From Candidatus Aminicenantes bacterium (GTDB taxonomy: Bacteria > Acidobacteriota > Aminicenantia > S016-38): 64,000 nt of DNA. This document shows, piece by piece, positions 11,608 to 59,453 of this stretch (position 1 is the first letter of the stretch; each line of letters opens with the position of its first letter). The notes below the pieces were generated by a model, which searched no databases, was not told where the DNA came from, and saw nothing but the letters and a program-made list of their open reading frames with translations. The stretch spans positions 218,706-282,705 of the forward strand of contig JAMOUJ010000006.1 of the NCBI GenBank assembly GCA_027068075.1, given 5' to 3'. Position numbers and translations under genes: made by a program.

Positions 11608-11685
11608 TGGCGGGGCCGACGGGATTTGAACCCGCGACCTCTGGCGTGACAGGCCAGCGCTCTAACCGGGTTGAGCTACGACCCC
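11608..11685 (-). tRNA. tRNA-Asp (anticodon GTC)
   Basis: Reverse complement folds as a cloverleaf: acceptor GGGGTCG/CGGCCCC, anticodon loop CTGTCAC, T-loop TTCAAAT, 3' CCA encoded. Confidence 0.85.
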
Positions 11686-11692
11686 GCTACAC

Positions 11693-11764
11693 TGGGCGGT
11701 AGAGGACTTGAACCTCTGGCCCCCGGCTTGTAAGGCCAGTGCTCTACCACTGAGCTAACCGCCC
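11693..11764 (-). tRNA. tRNA-Val (anticodon TAC)
   Basis: Reverse complement GGGCGGTTAGCTCAGTGGTAGAGCACTGGCCTTACAAGCCGG...ACCGCCCA. Anticodon loop CTTACAA, T-loop TTCAAGT, no encoded CCA. Confidence 0.85.
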
Positions 11765-41383: not shown

Positions 41384-41757
41384 AATTTCCTTTCCAGGGC
41401 CCTCATTTCTCCGTGGTCGGTTTCGTGGTCGTAGCCCAGCAGGTGAAGAAAACCGTGGATCATCAGAACCTTGAGTTCCTTTTCCAGGGAATGGCCCAGT
41501 TCTTCCGCCTGCCTACGGGCGGTTTCCACGGAAATTATCACATCGCCCAGATAGTCCTCCTGATCCGCCTGAAAACTCAAAACATCGGTGATGTCGTCCT
41601 TCCCCCTGTAGGCCCGGTTGAGTTCCTTTATTTTTCTGTCGCTCACCAGAACCACGGTGAAGTCCCTGTTCTCCGAAAATTCCTCCATGAGTTTCCTTTT
41701 GAGTTCAAGGAGAGGTTTTTTGTCTATTTTTATTTTCCTCTGGCGATTTAGAACCAT
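41365..41757 (-). CDS. ybeY: Endoribonuclease YbeY (rRNA maturation)
   Basis: '[12 protein letters not shown]' zinc-binding H..H.....H motif. The exact start is uncertain (overlaps the upstream gene end). Confidence 0.85.
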
Positions 41758-43165
41758 TTTTCTCTTCCTTCGGGTATTCTACCCTTTTGTGGTGTATGGC
41801 CGTCAGGCTTTTTATTATTTCCTCCTTTACTATTCTCAACTCCCTCATGGTGATGGGAGCCTCGTCAAATTGCCCGTCCTCCAGAAGGCTTTCAAAAATG
41901 GAGTTTACCGTGGCCCTTATGCTTTCCTCGTTGGGTTCCTTGAGGGATTTCACCGCCGCCTCGGAGGAATCGCAAAGCATCACTATGGCGGTTTCCTTGG
42001 TCTGGGGTTTGGGTCCCGGATAACGGAAGGTGCTCTCGTCCGCTTCTATGCCCATCTCCTTGGCCTTGGCGTAGAAGTATTTTACCAGGGTGGTGCCGTG
42101 ATGCTGGGCTATGAAGTCTATTATTTCCCGGGGGAGTCCCATCTCCTTGCCCATCTCCACCCCTTCCTTCACATGGTTTATTATGATCATGGCGCTAAGG
42201 GAAGGGCTTTTGTTTTCGTGGGGATTAGGCAGGTTTACCTGATTTTCAATGAAGTACTGGGGCATCTTTAATTTTCCGATGTCGTGGTAAAGGGCTCCGG
42301 CCCGGGCCAGAAGGGAATTACCTCCGATGGCATCGGCGGCCCTCTCGGCCAGGGTGGCCACCATGAGGGAGTGGTGGAAGGTTCCCGGGGCCTCCAGGGC
42401 CATTTTCTTGAAGATGTCCTGGTTGGTGTTGGACAGTTCTATGAGTCGGAGGGGTGAGACTATGCGGAAGAGGTATTCTATTATGGGGATGAGGAAGGAC
42501 GCTATTACGCTCAGTTCCAGGACATTTACCGTGGCGGTGGCCAGGTCGTCAAGAAAGGTGGTGAGGGAAATGTCCTGAAGGTGAGAGAAAACCAGAAACA
42601 GAAGGGAGGCAGGGTAGAGTATAACGAAGGCCGTCCGGTAAATGGTTCCCCTCCTCATCTTTCCGTAGTGGAGCACCCCGTAAATGGCTCCGAAGCCCAG
42701 CATGAGGGCGTATAGGGAGGCGATCACATTGCCTGTGATCCCCAGGACTCCCAGGGATACCAGCACCGTCAGGATTATGGGGGGGAGGGGATCAAAGATG
42801 TAGGACAAAACCAAGGAGGCGAAGGCGTAGGGAAAGGAGAAAATTATGAAGTTTTCCCTGTGGCTTTCCACCAGCCTCTGGAGGATGGTTTTGTGGACCA
42901 GGAACAGAAGGAAGGTGAACAGGAAGGAGAATATGACCACATTTATGGCCTTGTCAAAATCCCCGTCGTTGGATTCCCTGAGGATTTTCGTGAGGAAGTA
43001 GAGGAGGAAAAAGGAATAAACGAGGGCCAGGTAGGAATATTCTACGGCGTAGAGGAAGTGAACCGCCACGAAAACGGTGACGGCCACCCCGATGATCTTA
43101 AGGAGAAGCCCAACCCTCAGGCTCTCTTCCTTGAGTTTCAATCCCCCTCGCTTAGGTTTTCCCAT
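41705..43165 (-). CDS. 7TM-receptor-fused HD phosphohydrolase (PgpH/YqfF family)
   Basis: Multi-TM N-terminus followed by an HD domain ('HHSLMVA', 'YHDIGK'). Start approximate. Confidence 0.75.
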
Positions 43166-44120
43166 TCTCCTTTTCCTCTTTTTCCTTTCTTCCGTAGGCT
43201 TCTATTATTTTCTGAACCAGGGGATGGCGAACCACATCTTCCCGGGAAAATTCAACGACCTTTATCCCTTCAATTTCACGGAGGAGTTCCACGGCCTCCA
43301 CCAGTCCAGATTTAACATTTTTTGGGAGGTCAATCTGGGTTATGTCCCCGGTTATTATGGCCTTGGAATCAAATCCTATCCGGGTTAAAAACATCTTCAT
43401 CTGCTCGGAGGTGGTGTTCTGGGCCTCGTCCAGGATTATCACCGAATCGTTGAGGGTCCTTCCCCTCATGAAGGCCAGGGGGGCTATCTCTATGACCCCT
43501 CTTTCCAGGAGTTTTATGACCCTTTCCGCCTCCAGGAGGTCGTAGAGGGCGTCGTAGAGAGGCCGGAGGTATGGATTTACCTTTTCCTCCATGGTTCCCG
43601 GAAGAAAGCCCAGTTTTTCCCCGGCTTCTATGGCCGGTCTGGTCAGAATTATTCTTCCGTATTTTCTTTCAAAAAGAAGGTAAAGGGCCATGGCCATGGC
43701 CAGGTATGTTTTTCCCGTGCCGGCGGGGCCCACGGCGAAGACTATGTCGTATTTCTCTATGGCCTCCATGTAGAGTTTTTGATTCAGACTTTTGGGGCGC
43801 ACGGGCTTTCTGGTTCCCTTGAACCTTATTTCCCTTCCCCTTTCAAAGAGGGCTTCAAGGTCGGCCCCGGAATCCTTTTCCAGCATGTCAAGGGCAATTA
43901 TAAAGTCCTCCTCCCTCAGGGCCCTAACCCTGTTGAGTCCTGCCATTTTTTCAAAGTATTCCCTGGCGAACTTGACCTTTTCCTCCGGGCCTGAGATGAG
44001 CAGGGTATCCCCCCGGGCGGTTATGTCCACTCTGAGCCTTTTTTCTATTATCAGAAGGGTTCGGTTCAGGGTTCCCGAGAGAATTCTTATGTAGTCTTCG
44101 GGTAGGCGTAATTTTTCCAT
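43152..44120 (-). CDS. phoH: PhoH-family ATPase (YbeZ-like)
   Basis: Walker A 'AVGPAGTGKTYLAMAMAL', 'ILDEAQN'. 322 aa. Confidence 0.9.
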   Translation of the reverse strand: MEKLRLPEDYIRILSGTLNRTLLIIEKRLRVDITARGDTLLISGPEEKVKFAREYFEKMAGLNRVRALREEDFIIALDMLEKDSGADLEALFERGREIRFKGTRKPVRPKSLNQKLYMEAIEKYDIVFAVGPAGTGKTYLAMAMALYLLFERKYGRIILTRPAIEAGEKLGFLPGTMEEKVNPYLRPLYDALYDLLEAERVIKLLERGVIEIAPLAFMRGRTLNDSVIILDEAQNTTSEQMKMFLTRIGFDSKAIITGDITQIDLPKNVKSGLVEAVELLREIEGIKVVEFSREDVVRHPLVQKIIEAYGRKEKEEKENGKT

Positions 44121-44130
44121 TTAGTTCGTC

Positions 44131-44370
44131 TTATTCATTTAGGGTAAAAATGGGGCAGGTGACCGTGCTCTCCACCTCCTCCATTTTCTGAAGGTGGTTG
44201 ACCACGAAGTCCCCCAGGGAGTTGAAGTCCTCTGTTTCCACCAGGCCTATTATGTCGTAAGGTCCGCTGACTATGTGGCATTGTTTTACGGAGGGCATCT
44301 CCCTCATTTTCCTCAAAACTTCCCCGGCCTTACCGGATTTTACATTCATGAGGACATACGCCTTAACCAT
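44131..44370 (-). CDS. Stand-alone Lrp/AsnC C-terminal ligand-binding (RAM) domain protein
   Basis: 79 aa. 'VKAYVLMNVKSG...VKQCHIVSGPYDIIGLVETEDFNSL' RAM-domain pattern without an HTH. Confidence 0.55.
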   Translation of the reverse strand: MVKAYVLMNVKSGKAGEVLRKMREMPSVKQCHIVSGPYDIIGLVETEDFNSLGDFVVNHLQKMEEVESTVTCPIFTLNE

Positions 44371-44503: not shown

Positions 44504-44743
44504 TCAATGGGACTCCAGGAATTCGTCCCGGCATTTTTCCGAGCAAAAATAATAGGTCCTGCCTTCGTATTGAAGTTTCAGGGCCATCTCCTCCTCTATG
44601 TACAGTCCGCAAACCGGGTCCTTTACCAGGTTCTTGACCCTGGGGGGAGCATTCCTCCGGGGTTCGGTTTTTCTCCGGGCAGGCTTAAGAAAGATAAGGT
44701 AAAAGAGGTAGCCCACGATTAATAGAAAAATGAGAGCGCTCAT
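44504..44743 (-). CDS. Membrane-anchored YHS/TRASH metal-binding domain protein
   Basis: N-terminal TM 'ALIFLLIVGYLFYLIF' then 'DPVCGLYI...YYFCSEKCRDEF', a YHS/TRASH Cys motif. Confidence 0.6.
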   Translation of the reverse strand: MSALIFLLIVGYLFYLIFLKPARRKTEPRRNAPPRVKNLVKDPVCGLYIEEEMALKLQYEGRTYYFCSEKCRDEFLESH

Positions 44744-45210
44744 CCTTCCATCATCTCCTTTATGTCGTTGTGGTAAAGAAATAGGTTGGGAGTGAATTTT
44801 CCGGGAAGGACCCTTATGGGATGTCCGTCCACCTCCTCAATTTTTTTCATGCCGTCCACATGGGGGGATATGGCCTTCATGGTTTTCAGGAGTTCCTTGA
44901 TTTTCCTCTTAGCCTCCGCCCTTTCCCTTTCCACGGCGAAAAGGATCCCGTGCCTTTCCACCGCCTCCCCCTGGATGTAATATCCCACGAAGGCGGCAAA
45001 GAGCCGTTCTTCGGTGGGTTCCCTTCCCACCTCCACCCTCCTTCCATCGGCGTAGTTTACTTCCACCAGGGAGTCAAAATGAAATTCCCCCTCCACCTCC
45101 TCCGCCACCTTCATCAGGGCTTCCCGGGGCGATCCCGCCACCCGGAAGAGGTAGCGGTGATTTTCCTCAAATTCCGTGTCAAAGCCCAGGCCTATCAGGT
45201 AAAGTTTCAT
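44740..45210 (-). CDS. Conserved-looking hypothetical protein (156 aa), translationally coupled between radical SAM and YHS genes
   Basis: Uninterrupted ORF with 4-nt overlaps on both sides. No recognisable motif. Confidence 0.4.
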   Translation of the reverse strand: MKLYLIGLGFDTEFEENHRYLFRVAGSPREALMKVAEEVEGEFHFDSLVEVNYADGRRVEVGREPTEERLFAAFVGYYIQGEAVERHGILFAVERERAEAKRKIKELLKTMKAISPHVDGMKKIEEVDGHPIRVLPGKFTPNLFLYHNDIKEMMEG

Positions 45211-46169
45211 TTTTTCCTCCCGAACACCCGGACGAGGAAGACCCTTCCCCGGTAGGTTATTTCCCGGAGTTTCCCCTCCTTTATGAGTTTCTCCACGGCG
45301 GACCAGTCGGCCCCTGACCTGCGGAGAATCTCCTCCACCGCCTCCTTCTCCATGGGGTGAACGGCGGCGGTGGCCAGTATGTCCCGCTCCGCATCGCCGG
45401 TGAAACCGAAACTTCCCTCTCCGGATCCCGTCAGGAGAAGGGGACGAAGTCCGTGGGCTTTAAAGATCAGGTAAGATCTGTGTAGAGTTTCTTCGTCGGC
45501 CCCTTCGGCCCATTCCTCCGCCGGGGGTCTTGTGGGGACCATGATGTAGGATGTTTCCGGCTTTATCCGGCTCAGAAATTCGGCGATTTTTTCTATCTCC
45601 TCCGGGGAATCGTTCAATCCCTTTATCAACATGGTTTCGCTGACCAGTTGGTTTCCAAACTCCCTGGAGAAGGTCTCCAGGCCCTCCAGTATCCTTTCCA
45701 GGGAAAGGCGGCCGTGGGGCCTGTCCACCTTTTTAAAGGCCTCCGGGGAGACCGCATCCACCTTTACGCATACCCAATCCGCCGGGGCCAGATCCCTCCT
45801 TACTTCCTCCATCCACAGGAGGGACGAATTGGTTATGACGGCTATTTTTATGCCCAGGCCCTTCAGGAGTTTTATTTCCTCTCCCAGGTTCAGGTCCAGG
45901 GTGGGTTCCCCGTCGGGAACGAAACTCAGGTAATCTATCCGAATCCCCCTGAGCCTCACCTGTTCCACCCTTTCCTTTACGCTTTCGTAGATCTGCCCTG
46001 GGGAATAAAAGACCCTCCTTTTGATGGACATTTCCAGGGTCTTTCCTATCTGACAGTAAACGCAGGAATAGGTGCAAATCTTAGGGGGAATGTTGTTGAT
46101 CCCCAGGCTCATGCCCAGGCGTCTTGAGGGGACCGGTCCAAAGGCTATGGCTTCGTTTTCCATGGTCAT
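45207..46169 (-). CDS. Radical SAM protein (COG0731-like)
   Basis: 'FGPVPSRRLGMSLGINNIPPKICTYSCVYCQ' gives a CxxxCxxC cluster within the N-terminal motif typical of the COG0731 radical SAM group. Confidence 0.7.
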   Translation of the reverse strand: MTMENEAIAFGPVPSRRLGMSLGINNIPPKICTYSCVYCQIGKTLEMSIKRRVFYSPGQIYESVKERVEQVRLRGIRIDYLSFVPDGEPTLDLNLGEEIKLLKGLGIKIAVITNSSLLWMEEVRRDLAPADWVCVKVDAVSPEAFKKVDRPHGRLSLERILEGLETFSREFGNQLVSETMLIKGLNDSPEEIEKIAEFLSRIKPETSYIMVPTRPPAEEWAEGADEETLHRSYLIFKAHGLRPLLLTGSGEGSFGFTGDAERDILATAAVHPMEKEAVEEILRRSGADWSAVEKLIKEGKLREITYRGRVFLVRVFGRKK

Positions 46170-46179
46170 GAATTATAAC

Positions 46180-46926
46180 TCATTTTGGTCTGGGACCTAC
46201 AGGGTGGAGGGCCAGGACGCCGGAGGTGGTTCCGTCCAGGTCCAGGAGTTGGTTGATGTATGTATCGTAGAAGGCCGCCACCTCCACGGTGGAGAGGCCG
46301 TAGGCCTCGCAGGCCAGGTAAATGTTCTGGGAAATGGCGCCGGATTCCATGTAAGCGTACCTGTATCCCCTGTCCAGGTATTTCCAGGTTACCCTCTGGA
46401 AAAAGGAGACGAGGACCAGGAGCAGGGGAGCCCTGGCCATCATGTCGCCCTGGGGAGAGAAACGGAGGATCTGCCTTCGGAAACTTCCCCTTTTCAGGAG
46501 GCCCACGGAGTTTTCTTCCGGCAGGAACAGGTAAAGTCCCTTCTCCAGACCCTCCACCTCCTCGGCAAAGAAGTATATGAAGATGGGGTAGAGGGCCCCG
46601 GCGGAGGGGGCTGTCCTTAACTTCAATCCATCCTTTTCACCGCTTATTCCGTCGGCGGCGTTTAGGAGTCCAGAAAGGACCTTCAATTTTATGGGGGAAC
46701 GGTAAAAACGCCTCCGGGACCTGCGGTTTTTCAGGGCCTCCTCCAGGGAAATCGGTGGAAACTCCGGCGGCGGAAGTTTAATTTTCCTTAAGAAAGTCCA
46801 TTCCATTTTCGGCCTCTTTTGCCATTTCACCGGGCCCAGGTATCCCCGGGGGGAGTAGGAGGTGAGATGGTGGAACTGGGGACCCGGAAGGTTTAAGGCT
46901 AAAAACAGGGCCAGTTCCAGGAGCAT
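46180..46926 (-). CDS. SagB-type dehydrogenase / nitroreductase-family protein
   Basis: 'LRTAPSAGALYP' hallmark of the SagB/ThcOx-type nitroreductase fold. An alternative start lies at 46806 ('MEWTFLRK'). Confidence 0.65.
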   Translation of the reverse strand: MLLELALFLALNLPGPQFHHLTSYSPRGYLGPVKWQKRPKMEWTFLRKIKLPPPEFPPISLEEALKNRRSRRRFYRSPIKLKVLSGLLNAADGISGEKDGLKLRTAPSAGALYPIFIYFFAEEVEGLEKGLYLFLPEENSVGLLKRGSFRRQILRFSPQGDMMARAPLLLVLVSFFQRVTWKYLDRGYRYAYMESGAISQNIYLACEAYGLSTVEVAAFYDTYINQLLDLDGTTSGVLALHPVGPRPK

Positions 46927-47459
46927 TATTCAACGAAAACCCGGGAATCCCCGGTGGAAAAGACCTTCACTCCAGGAAACAGGGCAAAACTCAGGTAAAC
47001 CTGGTAAAGGCTGGGCTGGTCCACCCTTTGTCTCCAGTATCTGAACCCCGTGGAAACCCTCAAATCCAGGAAGTATCTCCGCCGGTCCAGAAGCCGTGCC
47101 CTCTTGCTGGAGAAGGACAGGTCAAATAATTTTTCCTCTCCGCTCTGGAAGTATCCGATGGAGGTTCCGCCCAGGTAGAGGACCAGGAGTCTGCGGGAGG
47201 CCCCTTCGGTGAAGGGGGATGAAAAATTTATCCACCGAAGGCCCACGCCTATTCCGGCGAAGGTTATTCCCCCTCCTATCTCGGTCTGCTTGAGGAAACT
47301 AAATTCCACACTGGGAAGTTTCTCGTCCAACAATTTGCCCCGGGCATGGAAAAAGGAAAGCCCCAGGCCCAGATCAAGGAACCCCTCTATGTTCTCCCCC
47401 AGGGCCGGAGGAAGAAGCAGAAGGAGTCCCAGGACTAAGACCAGTAATTTTCCTCTCAT
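46926..47459 (-). CDS. Secreted small beta-barrel-like outer-membrane protein (hypothetical)
   Basis: Signal peptide 'MRGKLLVLVLGLLLLLPPALG'. Alternating amphipathic strands, Gly-rich. Confidence 0.4.
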   Translation of the reverse strand: MRGKLLVLVLGLLLLLPPALGENIEGFLDLGLGLSFFHARGKLLDEKLPSVEFSFLKQTEIGGGITFAGIGVGLRWINFSSPFTEGASRRLLVLYLGGTSIGYFQSGEEKLFDLSFSSKRARLLDRRRYFLDLRVSTGFRYWRQRVDQPSLYQVYLSFALFPGVKVFSTGDSRVFVE

Positions 47460-47471
47460 AAACCAATGATA

Positions 47472-49232
47472 TCACACCTCAATTTCTTCCCACAGGGTCA
47501 TGACTTCCTTCAGGAGTTCCACCCCTTCCAGGAGAAGGAATCCGGCGGTGGTTATCTTTTCGTCCTTGGAGAAATGGGATATTTTGGCCTGGGTTAGGGT
47601 TTTTTCAAAGATCTCAGGATCCAGACCGGAGACCTTCTCCGCTTCCTTGAGATTTACCCTTCCCTTTTCGTCGGTGGCCTCCCTGGCAGCCAGGAGAAAT
47701 CTTACCAGATGCGGGGTCACATGGAACTCTATCCCGTCGGGAACGGCGGAAATGGCCCTCTTTATCCTTTCACCTGCCTCGGTTAGGCGGTAAAAGCCTC
47801 CGGGCAGGGCGTCTATAAGGGATTGTCCCACGAGTTTTCTCAGGGCTGAGCGGACATGTTCCTCCTCACGGGGGGGGAACTTGGCCAGGAGCCAGGGTTC
47901 AAACACCCCCCTCCAGAGGGGCATGGATTTCAGGACCCTGGCCTCAAAGGCGGAAATCATGGGGAGCCTTTCAATGGAACTGGCCAACTGGGCGAAGAAC
48001 CTTCCGGACTTGCTGGGGAAGCCGTTTCCCAGGAGGCCCTGCTCCTCCGCCTTTGCTACCCAGGAGTCCCCCGGGGAGAGGTTCTCCATTCTGGTGGTGG
48101 TTATGGCCATTACTGCGGTGGCGGAAACTTCCTTTTTCCCGTGCTGTTTCCTGTCCTGAAAAACCTTTTCACCCCATTCTGTAAATTCGTAGACCAGTTC
48201 TCCCCTTTCACCTATCCACGAGTGGAGCATTCTGTAACTTTCCAGGAGATATAAAGAATAGGAAACCTTCCACGGGGTTATGGAGTGTTCGTCCTCCGCC
48301 TTTTTCCTTATCTGGGAATAACTGGGATATATTTCGGGATTCGCTTCGTGGGTTTTCCAGAGACCCTCAATTATCTCCAGGATGGTCAGGTCCTGGGTGT
48401 CAATGTCTATGGATGGGTTCACCGTTATCGGTTCCACATAGAGAAGTTGGGCGGCCTTCAGAAGGTGATCGCCGGCGGGAAGGAGGTTTCCTTTGCCGTC
48501 CAGGGCCCCCATGAGCATAAGTTTTTCCCGGAGTTCTCCCCCGGGATCCCTCTCCAGAAGGGAAACGAGGATTTCGTCGGTAAGGGGAAAGTTCACCGCC
48601 GCCCCTTTGAGGAGTCCAGCCCTTATCTGCTGACCTGGCCCGGTAAGGGAGTAGTTGTTGCCGTGGGGAAGGGAGAAGGTGAGCAGGCCCATGGCCTCCA
48701 GTTGCATTATTTTCTCCCTGGTGAGGGGAAGGAAGGATTTTTTGCCCGGTCCCGGAGGGGTCTTCCTGAGTTTTTCCGCCAGGGCCGGGGAAATGAAAAC
48801 CCTGGACTCCGCTATTTTGTAAGCCTGAAGCAGGGATTCTCCCAGGGGAAGAAGTTTTCCGTCCCTGGCCAGTCCCCTTCTTTGAAGGGCAGAGGAGATT
48901 TCCTCCTGGAGGGAAATGTCCCCCTGGCTGAGAACCGCTATCTCCAGCATGGAGATTACCTCGGAGCCCACGAATCGGAAGTCCTCCTCCCAGTCCTCCA
49001 CGGGTCCCAGGGTTTCTTCGCATTCCCGGATGGCCTCGGATACCATGTGGCCGGCCTGGGTGAGGGAATATACCCCTTCCTCCTCGGTGAGGAGTCCCTC
49101 CAGGTCCAGGTGAAATAAATATTCTATGTCCTCGTCGGTCAGTTTATCCAGGACCCGGTCCAATTCTATGCCCTGGTCCCATTTTTCTGCCATTCTCTTT
49201 ATCAGGGCTGCGTGCTTTTTCAGAATTATCAT
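47472..49232 (-). CDS. Large acidic hypothetical protein built of repeated winged-helix-like units
   Basis: 586 aa with at least 5 recurrences of '...GLL....G.Y.LT.AG...' (YSLTQAGHMV, YSLTGPGQQI, NLLPAGDHLL, YRLTEAGERI, KITTAGFLLL), resembling MarR/PadR wings. Confidence 0.45.
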   Translation of the reverse strand: MIILKKHAALIKRMAEKWDQGIELDRVLDKLTDEDIEYLFHLDLEGLLTEEEGVYSLTQAGHMVSEAIRECEETLGPVEDWEEDFRFVGSEVISMLEIAVLSQGDISLQEEISSALQRRGLARDGKLLPLGESLLQAYKIAESRVFISPALAEKLRKTPPGPGKKSFLPLTREKIMQLEAMGLLTFSLPHGNNYSLTGPGQQIRAGLLKGAAVNFPLTDEILVSLLERDPGGELREKLMLMGALDGKGNLLPAGDHLLKAAQLLYVEPITVNPSIDIDTQDLTILEIIEGLWKTHEANPEIYPSYSQIRKKAEDEHSITPWKVSYSLYLLESYRMLHSWIGERGELVYEFTEWGEKVFQDRKQHGKKEVSATAVMAITTTRMENLSPGDSWVAKAEEQGLLGNGFPSKSGRFFAQLASSIERLPMISAFEARVLKSMPLWRGVFEPWLLAKFPPREEEHVRSALRKLVGQSLIDALPGGFYRLTEAGERIKRAISAVPDGIEFHVTPHLVRFLLAAREATDEKGRVNLKEAEKVSGLDPEIFEKTLTQAKISHFSKDEKITTAGFLLLEGVELLKEVMTLWEEIEV

Positions 49233-49279
49233 GGTGACCTCCTTGTGGAATTTATCCAGAATAAATTATAAGGGAATTG

Positions 49280-50230
49280 TCAAAAGGTCTTTTCCCATCG
49301 GATCTCTATTTTCTGGTAGGGAACCCAGACGCCGTCCACCCATCCGCTGGCAAGGGTAAAGGCGAGGTTAAACCCTTTGAGGAAGACCTCCTTCCTGTAA
49401 CCCAGCCATGTTAAATTGTTGCCCCGGTAAAGGGGGTCCCCGTCCTGATGGTAGAAATTCCTTCCCCACCAACGGCTAAGGAAGACCTCCCCATATTTTC
49501 CCGAGAGGGAAAGGAGGGCTTCGGTTCCCCTGCCGGTAAATCTTGAGGGTTTCCACCGATCCGGTATGTAGTAGGAAAGGAACCGGGCAGCGGAGAGGTT
49601 CACCGTTCCCAGGGGGGTGGGAAGTTTAACTCCGGCTCTCCCCATGAAGGCCATGTCGTCCTGGGGACCTACATGATGCTCCATGTACTCCCCTCCGAAG
49701 TGGACATAGTGATACTGGAAGGAGGCAAAGACCCCACCGCTTTCCAGCCGAAGTTTCAGCCCCACATCAAAATTCTCCTGGACCAGTTTTTTCATTTCCC
49801 TTTCCCAGTTTATCCAAACTTCCCCCTGGAGGGTTTTGCGTTTGTAGGACAACTGAAATCCCCTCTCCGCCGGCCTTTCGTAATAGAGGGCGTCAAAGTA
49901 TAGGGCCCTGTGGAGACCATGGAATTTACGGAGGTTTCCGAAGCGAAAACTGAACTCTCTGGAGGGCGAAAAGACCACCGCCAGATAGGGGAGGATCCTT
50001 CTGTCTCCACCGTAGAACCTCCACAGCAGGGCTCCGGCCTCGGCCTTTACCGCAGAATTGATTTTTATGGAAAAATACCCCTGAATCCAGTCTCCGAAGA
50101 AGGTTCTGCCGTCGTAGTAGGGGTTGGATTTGTATTCAAAATTGTAAAAAAGGGAATAATTTTCCAGGGAGAAGTTCACCCCGGCCATCATCAACCAGGA
50201 GGAAAGAAGAATAAACGGGATTTTCCTCAT
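49280..50230 (-). CDS. Outer-membrane beta-barrel protein (hypothetical)
   Basis: Signal peptide 'MRKIPFILLSSWLMMAG'. Aromatic-rich alternating strands. C-terminal '...RWEKTF' ends in Phe. Confidence 0.5.
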   Translation of the reverse strand: MRKIPFILLSSWLMMAGVNFSLENYSLFYNFEYKSNPYYDGRTFFGDWIQGYFSIKINSAVKAEAGALLWRFYGGDRRILPYLAVVFSPSREFSFRFGNLRKFHGLHRALYFDALYYERPAERGFQLSYKRKTLQGEVWINWEREMKKLVQENFDVGLKLRLESGGVFASFQYHYVHFGGEYMEHHVGPQDDMAFMGRAGVKLPTPLGTVNLSAARFLSYYIPDRWKPSRFTGRGTEALLSLSGKYGEVFLSRWWGRNFYHQDGDPLYRGNNLTWLGYRKEVFLKGFNLAFTLASGWVDGVWVPYQKIEIRWEKTF

Positions 50231-50345
50231 GAAGGAGCCATTATAAACCATGGTTTTTTTTCAAGTCAACGCTACCCCCTTTCCCCTGAGGGTTGACTTT
50301 TGCCAGGGGAGTATAGAAAATATAACTTTAACAGGAGGAGAGAAG

Positions 50346-59366: not shown

Positions 59367-59453
59367 TGGTGCCGAGGGCGGGACTCGAACCCGCACGGGC
59401 TTAGACCCACCAACACCTCAAGCTGGCGCGTCTGCCAATTCCGCCACCTCGGC
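59367..59453 (-). tRNA. tRNA-Leu (anticodon GAG)
   Basis: 87 nt class-II tRNA with a long variable arm: GCCGAGG...CCAGC-TTGAGGT-GTTGG...CCTCGGC-A-CCA. CCA encoded. Confidence 0.8.

Follow-up and report, generated by a model that had tools for sequence, protein, structure and literature searches.

The window analysed here, a stretch of 64,000 nucleotides (nt) from a Candidatus Aminicenantes bacterium (NCBI GenBank assembly GCA_027068075.1, contig JAMOUJ010000006.1, positions 218,706 to 282,705 of the forward strand), carries a gene of the domain-of-unknown-function family DUF505 (Pfam PF04458). The gene, identified from the list of open reading frames (ORFs), its translation and the PF04458 match, spans positions 47472..49232 on the minus strand, a strand not given in the initial annotation, and is complete, comprising 586 codons and a stop codon (47472-47474). 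The interval holds a single ATG-to-stop ORF, and its plus-strand translation is riddled with stops. The 586-amino acid (aa) product is acidic, as the initial annotation of this interval had proposed, with 92 aspartate and glutamate against 69 lysine and arginine residues, a net charge of -23 and a pI of 5.2. A Shine-Dalgarno-like AAGGAGG, read from the sequence at 49238..49244 on the minus strand, lies 5 nt before the ATG, inside the 47-nt gap that follows the stop codon of the upstream ORF (49280). Because this element precedes the ATG, and because Met1 and the N-terminal MIIxKKH are conserved in an alignment of 48 homologues, the start codon is considered correct. No paralogue of the protein was found in the window.

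The initial annotation did not recognise the family. The DUF505 profile matches the protein with 426.3 bits against a gathering cut-off of 28.7 (E 2.5e-127), in two stretches, the best of which places residues 1-312 on profile positions 1-318 of 622. The eight structural units described below, searched as separate fragments, map in order onto positions 1-621 of 622. The gene thus encodes a normal full-length member of this uncharacterised family and, since the family is already in Pfam, the gene call is routine. An exhaustive hidden Markov model (HMM) search of 1.84 billion representative proteins shows that DUF505 is a tiny family of 112 clusters, about 70 of them full-length, and revealed no member fused to another domain. 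Full-length members, as seen in the HMM search and in genomic loci, are 530-690 aa long and are matched end to end; 50 full-length homologues share 28-89% identity. A profile search of a 5.8-billion-protein set returned only Methanopyrus-type proteins. Short database matches were considered as stand-alone single-module relatives and rejected, as they look like truncated or frameshifted fragments. A whole-word search found no paper naming DUF505, PF04458 or IPR007548 in the literature library covered; the apparent DUF505 matches were longer DUF names such as DUF5059.

The AlphaFold2 model, calculated with the alignment of 48 sequences, is compact and without a disordered segment, with a mean predicted local distance difference test score (pLDDT) of 94 and a predicted template modelling score (pTM) of 0.91. 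DSSP analysis of the model identified eight recurrences of one order of elements: a short strand, a helix, a turn or short helix, a helix, a β-hairpin and a final helix. Units 1, 3, 5 and 7 have hairpins of 3-5 residues, and those of units 2, 4, 6 and 8 span 1-2 residues. Given the high pTM, the units pack as one rigid body, not as beads on a string. As modelled, the DUF505 protein is one compact chain of eight winged-helix (wH) or wH-like units.

The sequence motif that had drawn attention to the repeats follows the same periodicity. The initial annotation counted at least five copies, and eight are present. Only two copies, at residues 53 and 479, have the strict form G-x-[YF]-x-[LF]-T-x-x-G, and the remaining positions named in that annotation hold the degenerate copies GNNYSLTGPG (191-200), NLLPAG (249-254) and ITTAG (560-564). 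Three copies had not been named: LLPLG (about 127-131), VYEFTEWG (347-354) and FPSKSG (405-410). In the AlphaFold2 model each copy ends a helix and β-hairpin and is followed by a helix.

The alternation of long and short hairpins divides the chain into four modules of two units, cut at predicted secondary-structure boundaries. Module 1 (residues 1-142, 48807..49232, minus strand), delimited by DSSP of the model and hhalign, consists of unit 1 (residues 1-78), with a long hairpin and GVYSLTQAG, and unit 2 (79-142), with a short hairpin and LLPLG. Module 2 (residues 143-268, 48429..48806, minus strand), characterised by conservation, charge and hhalign, consists of unit 3 (143-212), which carries a PPGPGKK loop and GNNYSLTGPGQQIR, and unit 4 (213-268), with NLLPAG. 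Module 3 (residues 269-422, 47967..48428, minus strand; DSSP and hhalign) consists of unit 5 (269-366), with an extra N-terminal helix and VYEFTEWG, and unit 6 (367-422), with AITTTRMENLSP, W391 further on, and FPSKSG. Module 4 (residues 423-586, 47475..47966, minus strand; DSSP and hhalign) consists of unit 7 (423-497), with LPGGFYRLTEAG, and unit 8 (498-586), with ITTAG.

The modules were compared profile against profile with hhalign, using a second alignment of 94 sequences that includes the most divergent family members. All four align mutually and nearly end to end, over 87-130 columns, with probabilities of 96-98% and E values of 1e-9 to 5e-14; reversed or column-shuffled module targets gave probabilities of at most 1.3%. 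Module 1 matches modules 2, 3 and 4 at 98.0, 96.6 and 96.6%, respectively; module 3 matches the others at 96-97% and module 4 at 96.6-97.9%. Among single units, the long-wing units 1, 3, 5 and 7 resemble one another at 95-97%, units 2, 4 and 8, of the short-wing kind, match both the long-wing units and each other at 80-97%, and unit 6 is the most divergent of the eight. Since the modules are mutually alignable and the controls are near zero, the protein consists of a module of about 140 aa repeated four times in tandem. In each module a long-wing unit with h-x-L-T-x-x-G is followed by a short-wing unit, and the eight units arose by four-fold tandem duplication of this two-unit module. The repeats observed in the initial annotation are thereby confirmed and extended.

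In the PDB, Foldseek pairs single units of the model with solved winged helices, including PadR-like 1xma, MarR, MepR, ZitR, BldR and the WH domain of KAT6A, with a probability of 0.99, template modelling (TM) scores of the target of 0.4-0.67 and a root-mean-square deviation (RMSD) of 1.8-3 Å over 70-95 residues. The early description of repeated MarR/PadR-like wH units is upheld by these matches and by the model. Whole-model searches found no global analogue, either in the PDB, where no match reached E ≤0.001, or in BFVD. Module 2 modelled alone retains its fold (pLDDT 92, pTM 0.87), and a Foldseek search of the PDB with this model disclosed no solved counterpart of the pair, the best match having an E value of 0.23 and a probability of 0.14. 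Neither did a sequence-profile search of the PDB give anything better than E 0.18 (1r7j, Sso10a).

The single-unit matches to MarR, PadR, MepR and ZitR raise the question whether the protein is a conventional MarR/PadR-type regulator, which would control the transcription of neighbouring genes through specific sequences. By sequence, only unit 1 resembles known wH families (HTH_45, HVO_A0261_N and Sso10a), weakly and in every case below threshold. HTH_45 reaches 25.4 bits against a threshold of 25.5 with the whole protein and 17.9 bits with unit 1 alone; Sso10a (NF053610) reaches 21.4 bits where 60 are required, over residues 37-63 only. Residues 440-491 show weak PHROG/PhiH1-repressor-like and S19e-like wH similarity, and the PHROG match carries a 'transcriptional regulator' description. 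Against these hints, no regulator family attains its threshold, the protein combines eight units in one acidic rigid body of 586 aa, and its neighbours vary between loci, so that there is no conserved target operon. A regulator of this kind is extremely unlikely. An origin in defence or in a phage was likewise rejected, given the weakness of the PHROG match and the lack of any PADLOC (anti-phage defence) match for the DUF505 protein or its two flanking genes.

The top PDB matches of the whole model are themselves multi-wH proteins, namely human RPC62 (2xub, E 3.7e-3, probability 0.80) and a UFL1-DDRGK1 chimera (8b9x). Chains of wH domains can serve as protein-protein adaptors, as do ScpB and MukE with kleisin, ESCRT-II, RPC62 in RNA polymerase III and UFL1/DDRGK1 on the ribosome. 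By the same token the eight acidic units of DUF505 would form a docking platform for proteins, and nucleic acid would not be a direct ligand. The best structural matches are proteins of exactly this kind, the family is acidic overall and conserves few basic residues, and the single rigid body predicted by the model suits a platform. However, superposition on RPC62 gives TM scores of 0.12/0.15, where a shared arrangement would call for TM > 0.5, and an RMSD of 19.6 Å; the likeness therefore lies in the possession of many wH domains and not in a shared architecture. Moreover, the two-unit module corresponds to no ScpB, MukE, ESCRT-II or other solved tandem-wH pair, and no conserved neighbouring gene could encode the partner. 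The adaptor explanation is possible rather than probable.

Among close homologues, the loops PPGPGKK (159-165), LEAMRLLTFS...GQQIRAG (178-205) and AITTTRMENLSP (376-387) are near-invariant. In the 94 diverse sequences, invariance is limited to R119, W391 and G487. The other conserved positions belong to the L..GL / h-x-L-T-x-x-G framework (motif glycines, threonines and leucines) or are prolines, together with a handful of charged residues (E179, R204, D281, E331, R422 and K491). This pattern is the signature of a conserved architecture and not of an active site. Pfam and NCBIfam profile searches found no enzyme-family match, and the statement in the initial annotation that enzymatic motifs are lacking agrees with the family-wide set of R119, W391, G487 and the motif glycines and threonines. 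The sequence PPGPGKKS was examined as a P-loop and rejected; it does not fit GxxxxGK[ST] and is reduced to PxGP in the wider family.

The near-invariance of PPGPGKK, GQQIR and TTTRMENLSP among closer homologues could alternatively mark an active site acting on DNA, in an enzyme built of winged helices like the AlkZ/YcaQ (HTH_42) DNA glycosylases. These enzymes and DUF505 are both tandem wH arrays in a single chain, there is a weak Foldseek match to AlkX/YcaQ bound to DNA (9zd6_A, probability 0.28), and DNA-repair genes adjoin DUF505 in some archaea. Unlike AlkZ/YcaQ, the DUF505 protein has no HTH_42 Pfam match, its model is all wH and lacks a C-terminal β-barrel, and no catalytic Q-x-Q/D is conserved family-wide; the QQ at 201-202 is not conserved across the family. 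GQQIR and TTTRMENLSP also disappear in the wider family, and with PPGPGKK decayed to PxGP no polar catalytic constellation survives. An enzymatic role of this type is very unlikely.

The DUF505 gene stands in a co-directional minus-strand string composed of p323, DUF505, p177, a SagB-type dehydrogenase, a radical S-adenosylmethionine (radical-SAM) protein, DUF1543 and a YHS-domain protein, with overlaps or gaps of at most 47 nt. In agreement with the initial annotation, it lies transcriptionally just upstream of the gene for a signal-peptide protein (p177), which is followed by the SagB and radical-SAM genes. The flanking genes p323 (323 aa, 49280-50251, minus strand) and p177 (177 aa, 46926-47459, minus strand) both encode β-rich proteins with a signal-peptide-like hydrophobic start and may specify outer-membrane proteins. 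Neither belongs to a Pfam family, and p323 has only a sub-threshold LpxZ-family match. The tightly packed genes at 44504-46926 on the minus strand encode the SagB-type dehydrogenase (TIGR03605, 128 bits), the radical-SAM protein, DUF1543 and a small YHS/PP0621-like protein, and look like a peptide- or small-molecule-modifying cluster. The radical-SAM protein, of 320 aa, has the N-terminal sequence FGPVPSRRLG...CTYSCVYC and weak viperin/TYW1-like matches. Downstream of the cluster lies a housekeeping block (41705-44370, minus strand) that encodes a small protein with an AsnC-type ligand-binding domain, PhoH and a 7TM-HD (HDIG) hydrolase. At the gathering threshold, Rfam matches in the window are limited to three tRNA genes (11611-11764 and 59370-59453, minus strand). 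The best promoter-like site predicted for the gene string is at 50269-50240. Closer to DUF505, at 49265-49283 on the minus strand, a TTGACA, overlapping the stop codon of the preceding ORF, has a TATAAT only 7 nt behind it, a spacing that is wrong for a sigma-70 promoter; the 3' end of the -10-like element is 33 nt upstream of the DUF505 start.

The compactness of this string suggests that DUF505 may be part of the SagB/radical-SAM operon, for example as a wH scaffold that presents a precursor peptide. The RiPP (ribosomally synthesized and post-translationally modified peptide) recognition elements, or RREs, are wH domains, and DUF505 would resemble a multiple RRE. Gene neighbourhoods were surveyed in 75 loci with a DUF505 homologue (L001 onward) and in 13 additional contexts, mostly archaeal. 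The three closest relatives share the gene order; these are Aminicenantes metagenome-assembled genomes (MAGs) of 83-86% identity (L001-L003), although the string from SagB to YHS is complete only in L001, and L002 and L003 retain SagB and the radical-SAM gene. A second, independent adjacency occurs in an Aquificales MAG (L059), where a radical-SAM gene (L059:3063-4016, plus strand) whose product is 40% identical to that in the window lies immediately downstream of a DUF505 gene whose product is only 31% identical to the window's.

In contrast, a tblastn survey of the 75 loci with 18 window neighbours, SagB, p177 and p323 included, located them in L001-L003 only, apart from the radical-SAM gene in L059, and the synteny of these three loci is explained by their relatedness. 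The neighbours already differ in two further Aminicenantes loci, at 63% identity (L004 and L005). Of the 75 loci, 3 have SagB next to DUF505 and 4 have the radical-SAM gene there (L001-L003 and L059), which leaves 71 loci and all 13 additional contexts without it. A general tie of DUF505 to the radical-SAM/SagB cluster was accordingly rejected, and with it the association implied by the initial annotation, which had advised checking whether homologues co-occur with the downstream genes. The family lacks the conserved co-localisation with SagB or radical-SAM genes expected of an RRE/PqqD-like partner, and the protein has no PqqD/RRE Pfam match; no precursor gene came to light, although no search was aimed at one. 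Membership in the SagB/radical-SAM operon is thus largely refuted by the survey and scarcely probable.

No other gene takes the place of such a partner. De novo ORF clustering and a Pfam tally over the 75 loci found no conserved neighbour, and there is no common neighbour in the 13 additional contexts. The 132 immediate neighbours fall into 99 Pfam families, the commonest of which, GDT1, occurs 7 times, always within one Desulfobacterales-type lineage. GDT1, Memo and AFOR were rejected as partners, their recurrence being lineage-specific synteny. The genes flanking DUF505 are often on the opposite strand, and no homology links the adjacent ORFs without Pfam families in the archaeal contexts, which include three of about 350 aa. 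The DUF505 gene is autonomous, without a conserved operon partner, and it is not functionally tied to the adjoining radical-SAM/SagB genes.

Besides the radical-SAM adjacency in L059, two sporadic patterns stand as weak leads. In WOR-3/Hydrothermota (L040:6515-10612) the order is a KaiC-like ATPase, an ORF of about 200 aa, DUF505 and an SDH-type ClpP-like protease; it is kept in L040, L041 and L064, and in L039 it is interrupted by the contig end. In the Aquificota MAG L057, this ATPase (61% identity) and protease (58%) also surround DUF505, but the gene order differs. With Methanopyrus, a KaiC/RadA-like ATPase is found near DUF505 in three lineages, and the association with the ATPase and SDH-type protease was set aside as too sparse to conclude from. 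The second pattern is archaeal. In Methanopyrus (L076/L077/L078) DUF505 directly follows NreA with a gap of 33 nt and has a divergent KaiC-like ATPase beside it; in another archaeal context (L083) it directly follows the Hef helicase-nuclease, and in a third (L079) it is convergent with the AGOG 8-oxoguanine glycosylase. This association with DNA repair, seen in three lineages, is a weak lead.

The closest homologues of the window protein come from the Aminicenantes MAGs mentioned above. Other bacterial members are found in Desulfobacterales, Thermodesulfobacteriota (including the cultured Thermodesulfobacterium hydrogeniphilum), Thermotogae, Caldithrix, WOR-3, Hydrothermota, Aquificota, Flavobacteriales, Campylobacterota (Hydrogenimonas) and 'Bacterium 3DAC', and archaeal members in Methanopyrus, Korarchaeota and Micrarchaeota. 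From isolate names and organisms, we take the carriers to be overwhelmingly of deep-sea hydrothermal or otherwise thermophilic origin. DUF505 proteins of different phyla share more than 50% identity, which, together with the patchy distribution, implies horizontal transfer. The patchy hydrothermal and thermophile spread indicates a horizontally transferred, niche-specific accessory function.

The best explanation of these observations, which we consider about evenly poised between right and wrong, is that DUF505 is an autonomous, non-enzymatic, rigid scaffold of eight wH units in four modules that binds a macromolecule, with nucleic acid the favoured ligand. We infer the function as a binding scaffold. 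The protein would not be catalytic; its ligand may be an intermediate of DNA repair or replication, or a structured RNA, held by a putative surface, conserved and relatively basic, that units 3, 6 and 7 would form, and the acidic remainder may serve as a frame or as a partner-docking surface. Conservation is highest in unit 3, which alone among the eight is usually basic (positive in 78% of members). The slight lean towards a nucleic-acid ligand is based on the chemistry of winged helices, on this basic and most conserved unit and on the repair genes found sporadically beside DUF505. A role purely as a protein adaptor is almost as likely as a nucleic-acid ligand, given the acidity and the RPC62/UFL1-type best matches.

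Several observations weigh against the nucleic-acid-binding scaffold. The family is acidic, with a mean net charge of -14, and six of the eight units are usually negative, which argues against generic DNA binding; tandem-wH proteins that bind other proteins show such acidity more typically than do proteins that bind DNA. That the short-wing units are winged helices is an assignment from predicted structure, with sequence likeness to known wH families confined to unit 1. Four further contexts (L085-L088), retrieved as a prospective check, lack adjacent DNA-repair genes, as do the bacterial loci, and the adjacency of KaiC-like ATPases may be due to chance, since these form a very common archaeal paralogue family.

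A bolder reading makes DUF505 a hitherto unrecognised, horizontally mobile, thermophile-specific genome-maintenance factor, an eight-wH clamp or platform for DNA or RNA structures at high temperature that works with Hef, NreA, AGOG or KaiC/RadA-like ATPases. Stalled forks, crosslinks and damaged bases would be examples of its targets, and its pseudo-four-fold architecture has no solved counterpart. We regard this proposal as improbable.

What is new here is the description of DUF505 as eight winged helices in four duplicated two-unit modules without an analogue in the PDB. Nothing points to a new mechanism; the protein represents an unusual and unstudied fold arrangement of hydrothermal microbes. 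Discovery of the ligand of the putative scaffold would supply an annotation for a domain whose function has been unknown for 20 years, and could bring to light a niche-specific, high-temperature function in handling nucleic acid or protein. In the meantime, the survey guards against annotating DUF505 as part of the neighbouring SagB/radical-SAM cluster.

Compared with other members of Pfam DUF505, the window protein belongs to the same length class and has the same single-family architecture, with no difference. Among proteins outside the family, ScpB, MukE/KITE, the ESCRT-II subunits and the tandem wH of TFIIE-beta/Rpa49 are acidic tandem-wH pairs, and DUF505 is likewise built on a wH pair; ScpB, MukE and ESCRT-II are absent from the top 50 Foldseek PDB matches of the module 2 model. 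RPC62/Rpc82, a subunit of RNA polymerase III, and DUF505 are both single chains of several wH domains used as a scaffold. RPC62 is eukaryotic and has four extended wH domains without two-unit periodicity, whereas DUF505 has eight units. With MarR, PadR, HTH_45 and Sso10a proteins, the DUF505 units share the helix-helix-hairpin (wing)-helix fold and the signature L..GL(I/L)...G.Y.LT..G. The DUF505 protein has no MarR or PadR Pfam match above threshold and is not a member of those families, which are basic and dimeric, with about 100-180 aa and a single wH per subunit; DUF505, in contrast, gathers eight wH units in one acidic chain.

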